A stretch of DNA of 64,000 nucleotides from a virus: positions 1-64,000 of the IMG/VR virus record IMGVR_UViG_3300021197_001995, one strand, 5' to 3'. The position numbers and the translations under genes were made by a program. This document shows, one piece after another, positions 391 to 61,624 of this stretch; the stretch's first letter is position 1; every line of letters starts with the position of its first letter. Below the pieces are notes generated by a model. It did not search any database. It saw only the letters and a program-made list of their open reading frames with translations, and had not been told where the DNA came from.

Positions 391-731
391 AAAATCAAGA
401 ACTTATAGAAGTCATAGAAGAAGAGCTGTCTATAGTTCTCGAAAAGCGAAAGAAGAAGCGCAAAAAAGCCGGAACAGAATCCGGTAAAGAATCTTCCTTG
501 AGAGATTGGTTCGGAAGAAAAGGTGCTAAAGGAAAAAAGAAAGGTTGGGTTGATTGTAACACTTGCCGTAAAGACAAAAAAACAGGACGCAAAAAATGCA
601 AAGCATGCGGCCGCTCATCCGGAGAAAAGAGATCAAAGTATCCATCATGCCGACCTACTCCTGGAGCGTGTTCAGAAAAAGGCCGCGGCAAGTCATGGGG
701 TAAAAAATCAAAGAAAAGAAAAAAATCTTAA
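387..731 (+). CDS. Lys/Cys-rich small protein with acidic leader; putative internal head or nucleic-acid-binding protein
   Basis: ATGA overlap with the previous ORF. Leader MKNQELIEVIEEELSIVLE; six Cys including CNTC and CKAC; very basic. Confidence 0.7.
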   Translation: MKNQELIEVIEEELSIVLEKRKKKRKKAGTESGKESSLRDWFGRKGAKGKKKGWVDCNTCRKDKKTGRKKCKACGRSSGEKRSKYPSCRPTPGACSEKGRGKSWGKKSKKRKKS

Positions 732-738
732 AAAACTC

Positions 739-767
739 TTGACAACTTTATAACAATAGTTTATACT
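739..767 (+). promoter_or_regulatory. sigma70-type promoter for tilS (likely leaderless mRNA)
   Basis: TTGACA (739-744), 17 nt, TATACT (762-767). The ATG is at 774 with no Shine-Dalgarno. Confidence 0.75.
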
Positions 768-773
768 TATCTC

Positions 774-1376
774 ATGATTCGTATAATTGGCAAAATTCCA
801 AGTAATGTTGTCGTTGCTTGTTCCGGCGGTCTAGATAGTATGGCTGTCACCCATTTCCTCCAACAGGGAAGGAGAAAAGTCAGACTAGCCTATTTTAATC
901 ATGATACATCTCATTCTCAAGAAGCTCAAGATTTTGTTGAAAGCTATGCCAAAGAACAGCATTTGGATCTTTTCATCGGAAGAGTAAAAGGTACGAAAGG
1001 TAAAAGGTCTATGGAAGAGTTCTGGAGAGACGAAAGGTACAATTTTTTTAAGAGAATTCAAAGTAATTTTATTATTACTTGTCATCACCTAGACGACTGC
1101 GTTGAAACTTGGATAATGTCGTCTTTGCATGGAGAAGGTAAGTTGATTCCTTACCACCGACCCCCAAACCTCCATAGACCATTCTTAATGACGTCTAGGA
1201 GGGTCTTAAAAGACTATGTCCATAGGAAGGGTATCAAATGGATAGAGGACCCCTCAAACGCGAGATTAGAATACATGAGGAATCACGTGAGGCATTCTAT
1301 GATGCCACACATCTTAAAGATAAATCCTGGCATAAGAACCATGATTCGCAAAAAATTAATTGAAACTTATTTATAA
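774..1376 (+). CDS. tilS: tRNA(Ile)-lysidine synthetase, minimal (catalytic domain only)
   Basis: PP-loop SGGLDS, WRDERY, TCHHLDDCVET, RPFL and WIEDPSN..Y.RN motifs; immediately followed by a tRNA with CAT anticodon. Confidence 0.9.
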   Translation: MIRIIGKIPSNVVVACSGGLDSMAVTHFLQQGRRKVRLAYFNHDTSHSQEAQDFVESYAKEQHLDLFIGRVKGTKGKRSMEEFWRDERYNFFKRIQSNFIITCHHLDDCVETWIMSSLHGEGKLIPYHRPPNLHRPFLMTSRRVLKDYVHRKGIKWIEDPSNARLEYMRNHVRHSMMPHILKINPGIRTMIRKKLIETYL

Positions 1377-1399
1377 TTTCTGTTATAAATAGATAATAC

Positions 1400-1473
1400 G
1401 GGCCCATAGCTCAATTGGTTAGAGCATCTGTCTCATAAACAGAAGGTTTCTGGTTCAAGTCCAGGTGGGCCCA
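1400..1473 (+). tRNA. tRNA-Ile2 (anticodon CAU, lysidine-modified); CCA not encoded
   Basis: Acceptor stem GGGCCCA/TGGGCCC plus discriminator A; D-arm GCTC..GAGC; anticodon arm TCTGT-CTCATAA-ACAGA; T-loop GGTTCAAGTCC. C4-G69 and C5-G68 pairs and adjacency to tilS favour Ile2 over Met. Confidence 0.88.
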
Positions 1474-1507
1474 CAGACAGAATTAAACTTTAAAAAAGGA
1501 GAAAACA

Positions 1508-59002: not shown

Positions 59003-59649
59003 TGGACTCCAAGCTGAGAAAACGAAAAATGAAGTTCTTGGCTCTAAAGATAACATCTCTAAAGTCAGAACTCGAAGCCTCAAACGGAATACTTAGAGAC
59101 GCCGCGGCCGAAGTGGAAAAGATGTTCAGCGAGAAGTATGACCCACCAAAAAAAGAAAAACCTGAAGAAGAAAAAGAACTAAAAAAAGTGCCTCCAAAAC
59201 AGGCGCGCCCTGAAAGCGAAGAAGAGCAAGGCGATGAAGAGTCACTTGAGATAAAAAAAGAAGAAAAACACCCAGAGGTAAAAAAGCTGTTCAGAAAAAT
59301 CTCAACCAAAATACACCCTGATAAGCTAGAAGACCTCAAAGATGGACCGGAGAAAGATAAGAAAACTCAACTGTATCAAAAAGCAAGGCTAGCCCTAGAA
59401 GAAAACGACCTGCTGACACTGTCAGAAGTAGCCCTAGAATTAGACTTGGAGATTCCAGAGATAACAGAAGAAGTAATAAAAGAAGCAGAAGAAAAGATTT
59501 CTTCTATAAAGAGAGAGATAGATGGTGTAAAATCTACAATTGTATGGCACTGGTTTTTCGCCGAAGGAAAGGAAAAGAAAGATGAGATTTTAAAAATCTT
59601 ATTTAAAAAAATGTATGAACAAAGAAAAAACAAAAATCCTAGGACTTGA
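59002..59649 (+). CDS. J-domain-like co-chaperone protein
   Basis: VKKLFRKISTKIHPDK (helix II plus HPD) followed by a helix-III-like segment, flanked by coiled coils. Confidence 0.65.
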   Translation: MDSKLRKRKMKFLALKITSLKSELEASNGILRDAAAEVEKMFSEKYDPPKKEKPEEEKELKKVPPKQARPESEEEQGDEESLEIKKEEKHPEVKKLFRKISTKIHPDKLEDLKDGPEKDKKTQLYQKARLALEENDLLTLSEVALELDLEIPEITEEVIKEAEEKISSIKREIDGVKSTIVWHWFFAEGKEKKDEILKILFKKMYEQRKNKNPRT

Positions 59650-60166
59650 TATCTCAACATCGATCACCGGTGCGACAGTCCTCCGAGATGGAAAGATAAT
59701 AGAAAGTATCTACTGGGACACGAGAAATAAAAAATACTTCCCTACTCTCTACGAGAAGGCAATGCTTATAAAGCAAAACCTTCTAGACATCCGGTCACAA
59801 CACGAGATAAGTGAAATTTTTATAGAACAGTCACTCCAATCTTTTCGTTCAGGATTCTCGTCAGCAAAAACTTTGTCGACATTATCCAGATTTAATGGTA
59901 TAGTATCTTGGTTGTGTTTTGAAAATTTCCAAATCCAACCACAGATGATCGGAGCTAGCTCTGCTAGAAAGAAAGCCGGCGTAGAAATCAAGAGAGGAGA
60001 AAATTCCAAAGAAAAAGTTCTTCAGTTTGTTCTTGACAATTTCCCCCAAATTGAGATACAATATACAAAGCATGGAAATCCAAAACCAGGAATGTATGAC
60101 CTATGCGACAGTATTATAATAGCACTCGCGGGAGACAAAGTTGTCGGAGAAACTAAAATTACTTAA
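59615..60166 (+). CDS. RuvC-like Holliday junction resolvase
   Basis: ILGLDISTSITG, IFIEQ, L.RFNGIV, ARK and D..DS..IA. Confidence 0.75.
   Translation: MNKEKTKILGLDISTSITGATVLRDGKIIESIYWDTRNKKYFPTLYEKAMLIKQNLLDIRSQHEISEIFIEQSLQSFRSGFSSAKTLSTLSRFNGIVSWLCFENFQIQPQMIGASSARKKAGVEIKRGENSKEKVLQFVLDNFPQIEIQYTKHGNPKPGMYDLCDSIIIALAGDKVVGETKIT
60033..60062 (+). promoter_or_regulatory. Candidate internal sigma70-type promoter for the primase gene
   Basis: TTGACA (60033-60038), 18 nt, TACAAT (60057-60062), inside the resolvase CDS about 80 nt before the primase start. Confidence 0.5.
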
Positions 60167-61058
60167 AAGGGCCCTTGGCCACTGCTGGACCAACGAAGAA
60201 GAACATCAGTTTCACTGCCCTAAGTGCAACCACCACAAATTAAAGCTCTCAGTAAACATCGACAAAGGAGTCTTCAAATGCTGGATTTGTGAGTACTCAG
60301 GGACTAAAATTTCCCCACTCATTCGCAGGTTTGCCCCATCCTACTATGCAGACTGGCGCTTGCTTGAGGGCGAGGTCGACCTGGACAAGTACGACACTAT
60401 CTTTGCAGAGCAAGAAGAACTACCACCTCAGGTAATCGATTTACCAGAGAACTTCCAAACGCTTACAGGCAAAAAGACAAGAGTAAAGCGAAAAGCACTT
60501 AACTATCTTTACTCTAGAGGATTTACAGACACGGACATCCTGGCTTGGAAAATAGGCTTTTGTGATTTTGGAGAATACCAAGACAGGGTAATCGTTCCAT
60601 CTTTCGACGTTCAGGGAAACTTAAACTTCTTTATTGCTAGATCTTATACGGATGACTGGATGAAATACAAGAACCCAAAAGTAAGCAAGGACATTATCTT
60701 TAATGGATTGAACGTTGACTGGGATAGCGACATAGTGTTAGTGGAGGGTGTGTTCGATGCAATGAAGTGCAGAAACGCAATTCCTTTACTTGGCTCAACA
60801 CTTCGGGAAAACTCAATCCTATTCCAGAAAATCTGTGAAAGAAAACCAAATGTCTACCTGGCTCTCGACGATGACGTGAAAGACAAAGAGTTCGGAATCG
60901 CGAAGAGGTTAAGAGAATACGGAATAAATGCCATGTCGATCAAGATTACGCCATACGCAGACATCGGAGAAATGCCAGTAGAAATTGTAGAAGAACGGAA
61001 ACAAAATGCTGACATTGTTTCCGATTTAGACTATTTACATTACAAACTTGACTTTTAG
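60141..61058 (+). CDS. DNA primase (DnaG/T4 gp61-like)
   Basis: Zn-binding CPKC..H.....FKCWIC, YL.SRG, TOPRIM LVEGVFDA, LLG and LALDDD. Confidence 0.88.
   Translation: MSEKLKLLKRALGHCWTNEEEHQFHCPKCNHHKLKLSVNIDKGVFKCWICEYSGTKISPLIRRFAPSYYADWRLLEGEVDLDKYDTIFAEQEELPPQVIDLPENFQTLTGKKTRVKRKALNYLYSRGFTDTDILAWKIGFCDFGEYQDRVIVPSFDVQGNLNFFIARSYTDDWMKYKNPKVSKDIIFNGLNVDWDSDIVLVEGVFDAMKCRNAIPLLGSTLRENSILFQKICERKPNVYLALDDDVKDKEFGIAKRLREYGINAMSIKITPYADIGEMPVEIVEERKQNADIVSDLDYLHYKLDF
61031..61037 (+). promoter_or_regulatory. Putative late promoter CTATTTA
   Basis: Within the 3' end of primase, upstream of the AGGAG SD and ATG at 61069. Confidence 0.45.
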
Positions 61059-61068
61059 GAGCACAATA

Positions 61069-61239
61069 ATGGAACTTACAAAAAGAAGACTAAAGGAAAT
61101 CATCGCAGAAGAGATGAACCACTTAGCAGAAACAGGTGACCTCAACATGATCACCGAATCAGAAAAGAAAGCATTCGCTATCATTCTTGAGAAACTTACA
61201 CCAACTCAACTAGAGGACCTCGGCCTCAAGAGAGTTTGA
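61069..61239 (+). CDS. Small protein with LKEIIAEE leader (putative head-targeted)
   Basis: AGGAG SD; MELTKRRLKEIIAEEMNHLAE. Confidence 0.65.
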   Translation: MELTKRRLKEIIAEEMNHLAETGDLNMITESEKKAFAIILEKLTPTQLEDLGLKRV

Positions 61240-61240
61240 T

Positions 61241-61624
61241 ATGAAAAGGTCAGAACTTATCAAAATTATAAAAGAAGAGGCAAACCGTGTTTTAAAGGAA
61301 CAGAATACGGAGGCCACAATCCCCGGCGCGCCCGAGGGCATCACTGCAAGCTGGCTGCACTCACAACTGATTCAGATACAGCAAGCTTTGTCAGAGGACA
61401 GCCCTGTATTTGGTCAAATTTTATCTTTAGTCAGTGCAGTTGCCCCAGAAGAAGGCACGCCAGATGAAGAAAACGCCATCAGGAACGCTGATGGTAAAGT
61501 TTCAAGTTTCGCTAGAAAATCTTCAACGAATAGCACTCATTTCCGCCCAGCCGGCGACCGCCGCAGGCCCGAGCCAGGAACCAATGCAGATGGTTACACC
61601 GCACTAAAGAGAGATAGAGAATAA
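61241..61624 (+). CDS. Hypothetical protein with LIKIIKEE leader (putative head-targeted)
   Basis: MKRSELIKIIKEEANRVLKE. Confidence 0.65.
   Translation: MKRSELIKIIKEEANRVLKEQNTEATIPGAPEGITASWLHSQLIQIQQALSEDSPVFGQILSLVSAVAPEEGTPDEENAIRNADGKVSSFARKSSTNSTHFRPAGDRRRPEPGTNADGYTALKRDRE

Follow-up and report, generated by a model that had tools for sequence, protein, structure and literature searches.

GC-rich perfect palindromes occur in the genome of an uncultured marine tailed phage (G000; 159 kb, 43.7% GC, one coding strand), and in those of its close relatives, at two to six times the level demanded by proteins and codon usage. The trait concerns GC-rich perfect palindromes as a class, provided that they are uninterrupted and of even length, and the AscI- and NotI-type words are not special among them. 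The window considered here is the first 64 kb of this genome (positions 1 to 64,000; 42.3% GC); the record is about 88% complete, and the nearest available relative shows about 76% nucleotide identity. Expected counts in the window were obtained by a third-position shuffle preserving the protein sequence, the codon prefixes and all dinucleotides, and whole-genome counts were compared with three different coding-aware nulls and a very conservative 1.5-kb local shuffle. Calibration of the null gave ratios of 0.3-0.9 for T4, about 1.2 for neutral relatives and about 0.5 for avoiders.

Abundance and distribution of the palindromes

Across the window (1..64000; all features below are recorded without strand), 52 GC-only palindromic 8-mers are present versus 9.1 ± 3.2 expected (z 13.5), together with 195 GC-only palindromic 6-mers versus 69.5 ± 7.7 (z 16). 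The AscI-type word GGCGCGCC is found 10 times (0.8 ± 0.9 expected), at 2572..2579, 27803..27810, 30910..30917, 31041..31048, 39836..39843, 43390..43397, 50836..50843, 51857..51864, 59202..59209 and 61325..61332. The NotI-type word GCGGCCGC is found eight times (1.0 ± 1.0 expected), at 607..614, 4699..4706, 12114, 28776..28783, 33823, 47281..47288, 50076..50083 and 55752..55759. The preliminary description, made by eye, had placed nine of the AscI-type and all eight NotI-type sites correctly, overlooking only 39836, and its estimate that a given all-GC 8-mer should appear well under once per 64 kb agrees with the calculated 0.26 at 42.3% GC.

The remaining GC-only 8-mers comprise nine copies of GCCGCGGC (682, 12111, 12117, 20419, 32865, 41252, 52034, 57366 and 59101), seven of GCCCGGGC (13064, 13587, 21767, 23713, 26351, 44063 and 57376), seven of CGCCGGCG (21089, 21695, 26229, 35317, 54013, 56906 and 62028) and 11 others. 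Several sites lie within longer palindromes: the NotI-type site at 12114 and two copies of GCCGCGGC are contained in the 14-nt perfect palindrome GCCGCGGCCGCGGC (12111..12124), and the one at 33823 in the 10-nt palindrome CGCGGCCGCG (33822..33831). A 12-nt GC-only perfect palindrome, GGCGCCGGCGCC, spans 21087..21098, and CGGCGGTACCGCCG, a 14-nt perfect palindrome with GC arms around an A/T centre, spans 44895..44908. The GC-only run previously pointed out near 57365 is 21 nt long (57364..57384) and includes GCCGCGGC at 57366, GCCCGGGC at 57376 and the 10-nt palindrome CGCCCGGGCG. TCTAGA and GTCGAC are indeed common, as had been stated (33 and 25 copies), but their excess is marginal, with z 3.1 and 2.7 in the window and a ratio of about 1.25-1.3 over the whole genome.

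The whole genome contains 94 GC-only palindromic 8-mers, compared with 23-24 ± 4 under the three coding-aware nulls and 33.5 ± 4.2 under the local shuffle. The excess is uniform along the 159 kb, is present in all three frames, mostly at synonymous positions, and extends to non-CDS DNA (54 vs 27.3). The earlier suggestion of a frame-independent preference for these words at the level of DNA is thereby upheld, and the excess persists under codon- and amino-acid-preserving shuffles. The AscI and NotI words do exceed coding constraints; however, they are only two of the 13 enriched words among the 16 GC-only octamers, and A/T-centred and mixed palindromes are likewise enriched. The same GC-rich palindrome excess is observed in at least six related marine phage genomes besides G000. 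Site spacing is random (CV 1.18 vs 1.06 ± 0.09), with no regular spacing seen, and palindrome positions across relatives show no conservation beyond that of control words; the sites turn over between relatives.

Dependence on symmetry, length and G·C pairs

The decisive property is self-complementarity itself and no particular sequence. Reverse-complement symmetry at zero spacing gives a 3.9x enrichment, compared with 1.1x for direct and 1.3x for mirror repeats, and spaced inverted repeats, when tested, showed none. GC arms flanking an AT or TA centre reach 2.0x and 3.2x; with AA or TT centres, in which the central bases are unpaired, the enrichment is lost (0.94x and 1.15x). Odd-length forms are flat (CCWGG 0.96, GGWCC 0.97, GCWGC 1.00).

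For GC-only words the enrichment rises with length from 1.19 (SS, 4-mers) through 2.15 (SSS, 6-mers) and 3.90 (SSSS, 8-mers) to 5.93 (SSSSS, 10-mers), against 0.99-1.22 for AT-only palindromes. Each extra G·C pair makes the enrichment about 1.8-fold higher, whereas A·T pairs barely matter, the odds being 1.7-2.1 and 1.2-1.3 per extra pair, respectively. Enrichment correlates with nearest-neighbour free energy among palindromes (Spearman -0.45, p 3e-4) and not among non-palindromes (0.00). The same series, graded by the number of G·C pairs, is found in the distant relatives G010 and G009. No effect of G·U wobble and no RNA-wobble signature was found.

Near-palindromes and erosion

One-mismatch near-palindromes are not depleted (1.044 vs 1.053 for matched non-neighbours). 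Transition neighbours are not depleted either (1.06 vs 1.03 for transversion neighbours), so that no signature of very-short-patch (VSP, Vsr-type transition) repair is apparent. The G-to-A neighbours reach 1.68, compared with a baseline of about 1.3; decay products are thus in excess, and the palindromes undergo erosion by the dominant plus-strand G-to-A pressure of the genome. Considering the random spacing, the turnover between relatives and this erosion, the palindromes must either keep arising anew or enjoy preferential fixation.

Restriction avoidance and variation among relatives

The statement that restriction-type palindromes are not avoided proved wrong, as CTCGAG and GAGCTC are strongly purged. 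The window holds a sole copy of the XhoI-type CTCGAG, at 50100..50105 (11.2 expected), and two copies of the SacI-type GAGCTC, at 14614..14619 and 56141..56146 (11.0 expected); the whole-genome counts are 4 vs 24 and 4 vs 27 expected, respectively. CATATG, CGTACG, TGCGCA and ATAT are also low in the genome. The purging of CTCGAG and GAGCTC switches on and off between relatives, which marks the phage DNA as restriction-sensitive, and sister lineages purge the GC-only 6-mer palindromes as a whole, the very class enriched in G000. Ordinary restriction avoidance overlies the palindrome excess. The low CTCGAG and GAGCTC counts resemble known phage restriction-site avoidance (PMC6286503, PMC4687349); for the GC-rich class, which is enriched here, the sign is reversed.

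On the PhoH tree the palindrome trait is labile, with at least 9-10 state changes. Matches in both G003 (enriched) and G016 (non-enriched) are found for 73 of the 140 G000 genes, and the annotated genes that G003 has and G016 lacks include no replication gene. From these gene matches and annotations, the relatives appear to share most replication genes. Lability of the trait despite this apparent sharing, and the absence of the excess from T4, were both counted against a replication-based mechanism.

DNA-modification genes

Searches of G000 yielded no C5, N4/N6, Dam-type or N6 methyltransferase and no Vsr, ThyA-like hydroxymethylase, TGT/DpdA or QueC (PF00145, PF01555, PF02086, PF02384, PF03852, PF00303, PF01702 and PF06508 are all absent); for Vsr and the hypermodification genes, G000 was the one enriched genome searched. 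No methyltransferase was found in the enriched relatives, including the 100%-complete G003, G005 and G010, and methyltransferases occur only in the non-enriched relatives G016, G012 and G024.

Origin of the excess

It is possible, with a probability of roughly one in three, that the excess stems from a base-pairing-dependent DNA transaction of phage replication or recombination, which would preferentially create or fix perfect dyads. A candidate would be a strand switch in register: a nascent end that bears the complete palindrome would pair anew with the identical word on the other strand; conversion bias in heteroduplexes may be an alternative. The source would then be neither a sequence-specific protein, nor a phage methylase, nor RNA structure. 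Template switching of the quasi-palindrome-correction type, described first in phage T4 (Ripley 1982, cited in PMC5941160), has been held responsible for an excess of short perfect inverted repeats across genomes (PMC5941160). As in G000, that excess is genome-wide, grows with arm length and needs no reader, and T4-type replication is the classical setting of the process. Its literature concerns arms of at least 5 nt and spacers of up to 70 nt, whereas in G000 the effect is confined to zero-spacer words of even length whose centre pairs, near-palindromes are not depleted and the GC dependence is strong. The classical process predicts enrichment of spaced repeats and non-pairing centres, neither of which is enriched, and depletion of near-palindromes, which stay at baseline with their G-to-A products in excess; both points argue against the replication- or recombination-linked view. 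Furthermore, the smaller contribution of an A·T pair compared with a G·C pair shows that the final word's stability counts, a pattern closer to fixation bias or selection than to a rate determined by the pre-existing core.

Weak selection for the density of GC-rich perfect palindromes, read by dyad-symmetric protein(s) or a sensor of self-complementary DNA, is somewhat less likely. The importance of final-word stability speaks for it, as do perfect words forming isolated peaks with one-step neighbours at baseline, as reversible selection predicts, and an excess upheld despite G-to-A erosion. The purging of the same class in sister lineages suggests that these words are biologically visible in the hosts of this phage family, and maintained iterated palindromes have precedents, with HIP1 in cyanobacteria as an analogue (PMC5861425). 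However, the favoured words include 13 of 16 octamers as well as A/T-centred and mixed palindromes, graded by G·C pairs, and no sequence-specific protein has so broad a preference. This breadth, along with the random spacing and the lack of positional conservation, also makes binding sites for one phage protein, as proposed in the preliminary description, unlikely. Odd-length Type II-style words are unaffected, and no candidate reader gene was found, no annotation having been obtained for the clade-specific proteins. The leading idea of that description, that phage-encoded methylation or base hypermodification acts on the palindromes, is very improbable. Indirect points in its favour are that the words are restriction-type palindromes tolerated in large numbers and that a gene could be missing from a record of this completeness, but it is largely refuted at the gene level, and the restriction sensitivity of the DNA also speaks against it. 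Context-dependent mutation, another of the proposals made there, may contribute, but a Vsr-type signature of transition repair is absent. The earlier observation is partly confirmed and its interpretation partly supported.

An origin on the host side is improbable, whether through host cytosine methyltransferases with methylation-linked biased repair (HIP- or VSP-like, following Elhai's model or Vsr-type T:G repair) or as a mirrored host oligonucleotide signature. Very-short-patch repair by Dcm/Vsr is reported (Bhagwat and McClelland, 1992) to raise CCWGG and lower its T-containing derivatives in E. coli; a repair bias can raise the frequency of palindromic methylation sites, but G000 has no Vsr or C5 methyltransferase gene, its transition neighbours are not depleted, CCWGG-type words and the other odd-length sites typical of Dcm, EcoRII and AvaII-type enzymes are flat, and the graded effect runs through the entire class, beyond what the specificities of a few enzymes would cover. 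Lability among relatives would fit host switching, and G003 has tRNAs for A-ending codons, a hint that the host's GC content exceeds that of the phage. Among the pooled octamers, the top one, CGCCGGCG, conforms to YGCCGGCR, the motif of Caulobacter ScmA, and ScmA acts together with a Vsr-like protein (PMC12907096). In cyanobacteria, alternative HIPs of the GCCGGC, GRCGYC and GCSGC types are found together with their cognate methyltransferases (PMC4390886). These HIPs and HIP1 (GCGATCGC) share with the present trait short, GC-rich perfect palindromes far above expectation, within genes, at synonymous sites and in all frames; unlike the class-wide, 2-7x excess graded by G·C pairs in this phage genome, with random spacing, no methyltransferase and no positional conservation, they involve one word per genome at 15-300x, a cognate methyltransferase, conserved positions and periodic spacing (PMC4390886, PMC5861425). 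Elements that form hairpins or cruciforms, be they terminators or structured RNA or DNA, and whose stems typically show GC-rich dyad symmetry, are scarcely credible and were rejected by the spacing, centre-pairing and wobble tests: zero-spacer 6-10-mers are unable to fold on themselves, foldable spaced inverted repeats are not enriched, the centre must pair, and the sites, inside genes in all frames, show no G·U tolerance on the mRNA strand. That the excess merely follows from composition, whether through Ala/Gly/Pro/Arg dipeptides, codon usage, dinucleotide bias or GC-rich patches, is practically out of the question. Non-palindromic GC-only 6-mers are themselves at 1.2-1.4x and one 2-kb stretch reaches 51% GC, but with z 14-18 the excess beats every null that keeps protein, codon usage, dinucleotides and local composition over 1.5 kb, direct and mirror repeats of equal composition are not enriched, and the null was calibrated on T4, neutral relatives and avoiders; this candidate was accordingly rejected.

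Under the proposed replication- or recombination-linked origin, lineages whose hosts restrict GC-rich palindromes would purge those words instead. The palindrome excess in the G000 clade runs opposite to the palindrome avoidance that is usual in phages.

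Excess of GC-Only Palindromes

An excess of the AscI and NotI words had been proposed in the preliminary description, and it is borne out by exact counting. In the window, GGCGCGCC (AscI) occurs ten times, at 2572, 27803, 30910, 31041, 43390, 50836, 51857, 59202, 61325 and, in addition to those first listed, 39836; GCGGCCGC (NotI) occurs eight times, TCTAGA 33 times and GTCGAC 25 times. At a window GC content of 42.3%, with a strong A>T skew, the base-composition expectation per GC-only 8-mer is 0.26, and that of a fifth-order Markov model is 3.5–4.3. All 18 AscI and NotI sites have differing flanks, so duplication does not explain them. 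When all 8-mers of the window are ranked, the most over-represented are GC-only palindromes as a class (GCCCGGGC, GGCGCGCC, GCCGCGGC, GCGGCCGC and CGCCGGCG), and the per-word frequency of palindromic GC-only 8-mers is 3.7 times that of non-palindromic ones. The two words first singled out as favoured are enriched but not special, being ordinary members of a set of 13 enriched GC-only octamers. All-G/C runs of at least 8 nt, including the 21-nt run at 57364–57384, are 2–10 times over expectation.

Genes were called on the plus strand (87–93% coding), and three coding-aware nulls were applied: a synonymous-codon shuffle inside each gene, a shuffle of codon order, and a third-position shuffle that leaves the encoded protein, codon positions one and two and all dinucleotides unchanged. 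The enrichment had been expected to disappear under such shuffles if it were explained by amino-acid content; instead, the whole genome of the window phage (G000, 159 kb) holds 94 GC-only palindromic 8-mers vs 19–24±4 under the three nulls (z 17–19), with 17 AscI sites vs 0.8–1.7 and nine NotI sites vs 1.3–2.7. In the window alone, the counts are 52 vs 9.1±3.2 for 8-mers and 195 vs 69.5±7.7 for 6-mers. Under a far more conservative shuffle within 1.5-kb blocks, 94 8-mers are still found vs 33.5±4.2 and 394 6-mers vs 215±12, and the ratio stays at 1.65–2.2 over most of the genome. The excess is present in all three reading frames (2.2–2.6-fold for 6-mers, 4–5.5-fold for 8-mers), frame independence being one of the checks proposed earlier, and also in noncoding DNA (54 vs 27.3 under a dinucleotide shuffle). 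Calibration on GC-only palindromic 6-mers gives observed/null ratios of 0.33 for 50 kb of T4 (0.8–0.99 in other measures), 1.2 for relatives without bias and 0.47 for relatives that avoid these words. A composition or codon artifact is ruled out by the three nulls, the local-block null, the symmetry controls described below and these external controls.

Symmetry, Length and G·C Dependence

Of the eight GC-only 6-mer palindromes, all but CGCGCG, which is not enriched, rank among the eleven most over-represented of the 4096 hexamers; the top four hexamers are all palindromes (2.0–2.6-fold), and those in which G/C flanks an A/T core come next in rank (1.4–1.7-fold). When five enriched genomes are pooled (609 kb), 13 of the 16 GC-only octamers are enriched by 1.5–7.4-fold (251 vs 64), the exceptions being GCGCGCGC, CGCGCGCG and CCGGCCGG. 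At zero spacing, reverse-complement symmetry gives 3.9-fold, direct repeats 1.1-fold and mirror repeats 1.3-fold.

The enrichment of GC-only palindromes climbs with length, from 1.19 for 4-mers to 2.15 for 6-mers, 3.90 for 8-mers and 5.93 for 10-mers (32 vs 5.4); the corresponding AT-only values are 0.99, 1.06, 1.16 and 1.22. An apparent stop at 8 bp, considered as a protein footprint, is a small-sample effect of G000 alone, as the pooled data still rise to 10-mers. With GC arms around an A/T centre, the enrichment likewise increases with the number of G·C pairs (1.31, 2.02, 3.07), and all palindromes with arms of at least 7 nt reach 1.8-fold. Among hexamer palindromes (n = 64), log enrichment is higher the more stable the duplex is by nearest-neighbour free energy (rho −0.45, p 3e-4); the 4032 non-palindromic hexamers show no such correlation (rho 0.00).

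Only continuous, even-length words are enriched. GC arms around AT/TA centres are enriched 2.0- and 3.2-fold vs 0.94- and 1.15-fold around AA/TT, and a single central A/T gives an odds ratio of 1.1–1.3. Odd-length CCWGG, GGWCC and GCWGC are flat. The reverse-complement signal fades within 1–2 nt of spacer; W-only spacers of 1–6 nt give about 1, and spacers of at least 3 nt give about 1.3 at most.

Near-Palindromes and Avoided Words

Words one step away from the palindromes are not depleted (1.044 vs 1.053 for matched non-neighbours). Transition and transversion neighbours stand at 1.06 and 1.03, so the transition depletion of Vsr-like repair is absent and this candidate is rejected. C-to-T neighbours, in which the mRNA would retain G·U pairs, are not favoured; RNA-level pairing is therefore rejected as well. 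On the plus strand of the pooled enriched genomes, words that a single G-to-A change separates from a GC-only octamer palindrome are in excess (1.68-fold vs a baseline of about 1.3-fold), which is read here as erosion of abundant palindromes by the dominant mutational direction of the genome. The near-palindromes are strand-asymmetric, the C-to-T counterparts reaching 1.16-fold.

The preliminary description also held that restriction-type palindromes are not avoided. This is contradicted by the strong depletion in G000 of CTCGAG (XhoI; 4 vs 24) and GAGCTC (SacI; 4 vs 27); in the window, CTCGAG lies at 50100 and GAGCTC at 14614 and 56141. CATATG (12 vs 23), ATAT (362 vs 507), CGTACG and TGCGCA are moderately depleted. 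ACGT is not depleted in G000 (395 vs 419), in contrast to the enriched relatives' loci L001–L011, where it stands at 0.34 of the base-composition expectation and GTAC at 0.51. The XhoI and SacI words are missing or nearly so across relatives, with lineage-specific releases: G001 (loci L101–L105) has eight CTCGAG and no GAGCTC, and G008 (L111–L114) has no CTCGAG and 12 GAGCTC. The strong depletion is found for those words only, not for the GC-only class. Their avoidance is ordinary restriction pressure and indicates that the phage DNA is restriction-sensitive; with its releases, it looks as if nature had cleanly recorded how two distinct restriction pressures were gained and lost.

Distribution and Conservation among Relatives

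About 600 PhoH relatives are present in IMG/VR, and their 20-kb loci sort into enriched, neutral and avoider groups. Avoider loci are almost devoid of GC-only 6-mer palindromes, with GGCC or CGCG at zero in some. Among avoiders (L015, L016, L017, L019, L064 and others), 12 of the 44 remaining GC-only 6-mer palindromes lie inside GC-only 8-mer palindromes vs 9.1 expected; these lineages seem to keep a few specific octamer palindromes, possibly as functional sites. The whole genomes of G003, G001, G002 and G008 (70–72% nucleotide identity to G000) are enriched 1.9–2.5-fold for 6-mers and 3.2–5.3-fold for 8-mers, and the complete G016 stands at 0.66 and 1.0. G010 and G009, alignable to G000 over only 9–16 kb at 67–68% identity, follow the same G·C series and obey the centre and odd-length rules as well. 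The metagenome locus L137, the closest relative found (about 76% nucleotide identity), is likewise enriched. AscI and NotI counts vary among relatives, with no NotI site in G003 and G002.

In the PhoH tree, G000 falls in a clade of ten entries (support 100/99), of which eight are enriched; L002, one of the remaining two, is enriched genome-wide. The sister clade consists mostly of avoiders, and at least 9–10 changes of palindrome state are needed on the tree.

Positional conservation was assessed in orthologous codon alignments with identical amino-acid context, the expectation being the relative's own context usage. GC-only 6-mer palindromes of G000 are kept as the same word in 27 cases vs 18.8 (1.44), and the controls give 1.42 (non-palindromic GC-only words) and 1.63 (five-GC words). 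The palindromic state is kept at 34 homologous sites vs 22.5. An apparent covariation, in which a different palindrome occupies the homologous site (OR 3.0), falls to 10 vs 7.0 once amino-acid context is controlled, as it stems from a conserved context in which third positions, spaced by 3 nt, are free to vary. A Mantel-Haenszel estimate of the same signal is disregarded, being biased by the omission of identical words. Between L137 and G000, palindromes are identical at 28% of sites and controls at 20%, which is not significant; no closely related pair for scoring gain and loss was found within the enriched clade. Since palindromes are no better conserved than controls and the covariation is gone, the excess is a density trait with turnover.

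Gene Content

The IMG/VR record is single, 159,041 bp long and about 88% complete, with the window at its start and nearly all genes on the plus strand. Window genes include a PIN-PhoH fusion, glycosyltransferases, a baseplate-wedge-like protein, a primase and two giant ORFs (3368 and 3792 aa) without family match; 26001–28000, inside the 3368-aa ORF, has 51% GC over 2 kb vs 39–46% elsewhere in the window. A single ORF (61699–63999), running past the window end, joins an Mre11-like phosphoesterase to a Rad50/SbcC-like ATPase, and its nearest isolated-phage match is in Microcystis phage Mel-JY01 (31% identity, 95% query coverage). No relative of the 401-aa protein at 57797–59002 turned up in the viral contig collection, and metagenome contigs gave only three (identities 83%, 58% and 56%); the gene, in the virion region, is lineage-specific. 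G000 has no close isolated relative: megablast gives no match, and the best protein identity to isolated phages is 31–38%, which does not point to a host. psbA was not found in G000. In G003, two near-duplicate tRNA clusters (L081:1306–1922 and L081:8186–8975) and a phage tmRNA (L082:18543–18853) with tag ANDDVENFEDFALAA are present; the tRNAs all read A-ending codons (Lys-UUU, Gly-UCC, Pro-UGG, Leu-UAA, Ile-UAU, Arg-UCU), a hint that the host's GC content exceeds that of the phage.

The words had been suggested to be targets of phage-encoded methylation or hypermodification. A full-genome search of G000 (about 88% complete) does not support this, as it gave no C5, N4/N6, Dam-type or N6 methyltransferase, Vsr, ThyA-like enzyme, TGT/DpdA or QueC. 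No C5 methyltransferase occurs in the 24 related records, and no DNA methyltransferase in the enriched relatives; the only ones found in the family are an N4/N6 enzyme in G016 (C1:171877–172659) and Dam-like enzymes in G024 (C1:70786–71622) and G012 (C1:33049–34020), all three non-enriched. Of the 41 G000 genes shared with G003 and missing in G016, the sole DNA-acting one encodes a UvdE-type UV-damage endonuclease (126792–127721, equal to L118:10792–11721; PF03851, 1e-60). UvdE is present in enriched G003, G004, G005, G006 and G010 but also in G012 and G024, and absent from the complete G016 and the 91%-complete G011; as its presence matches enrichment only in part, with phylogeny as a confounder, it was set aside as a cause. 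For four large clade-specific proteins, searches of Pfam, PHROG and PDB gave no match.

Origin of the Excess

Composition, hairpins and RNA structure are excluded as causes by the data, and so are VSP-type repair and methylation or hypermodification by the phage; the data also argue against any single sequence-specific reader. Hypermodification would call for dCMP hydroxymethylase, DpdA/TGT, QueC or similar genes, and VSP repair for Vsr and a C5 methyltransferase, with depletion of C-to-T and G-to-A derivatives; G000 lacks these genes, and the derivatives are undepleted. The resemblance to HIP-type iterated palindromes is also limited. In those systems one word reaches 15–300-fold, a cognate DNA methyltransferase is present and spacing is periodic or regular, whereas here enrichment is spread over the octamer class, neither G000 nor its enriched relatives encode such an enzyme, and spacing in the window is random to slightly clustered (dispersion test, gap CV 1.18 vs a null of 1.06±0.09). 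HIP1 sites are furthermore positionally conserved (PMC5861425), unlike the sites that turn over in this clade.

The feature being read is continuous self-complementarity weighted by G·C pairs. This points to a nucleic-acid pairing step. A pairing-dependent replication or recombination process is therefore the reading adopted here, tentatively, at a probability of roughly one in three. Template switching, the standard explanation for short-inverted-repeat excess (PMC5941160), fits both the growth with arm length and the lack of a reader, but its classical form predicts enriched spaced repeats and the correction of near-perfect ones; spaced repeats stay at about 1 with W-only spacers, near-palindromes are not depleted and G-to-A derivatives are in excess. 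The k-mer statistics are better matched by a fixation bias, through selection or biased conversion, that grows as the finished word becomes more stable, but it comes without an agent. Selection for a reader of the palindromes is possible though doubtful, and an origin in host methylation or repair is improbable.

As for the reversal of sign in the sister lineages, most simply restriction purging would override the positive force there. It is conceivable, although rather unlikely, that something in this phage-host system senses self-complementary GC-rich words as such via base pairing rather than by a sequence-specific enzyme, such words conferring an advantage or propagating themselves in some lineages and being lethal to their sisters.

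Significance

Phages are textbook palindrome avoiders, and a clade that accumulates restriction-type palindromes is for that reason unusual. Iterated palindromes and short-repeat excess are already known kinds of signal; what is new is that, in a phage clade, the excess spans a whole class of zero-spacer words and is graded by their stability, beside purging in sister lineages. A full-text literature search on the topic found no paper describing such a class-wide excess. The sharp rules (perfect, even-length, paired centre, G·C-graded) and the sister purging make a clean natural system in which a mutational (templated) origin of iterated palindromes can be told from a selective one, a question that the HIP1 debate has carried for 30 years. 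Analyses of k-mer avoidance can be confounded by an opposing force of this kind. In practical terms, these genomes are exceptionally rich in the rare-cutter sites AscI, NotI, SrfI, SacII and NaeI, with XhoI and SacI nearly missing. If sensing by base pairing is true, it would constitute a previously undescribed, genome-wide axis of "palindrome polarity" in marine phages, governed by a quantitative law of about 1.8-fold for each G·C pair, seen again in lineages widely separated on the PhoH tree.
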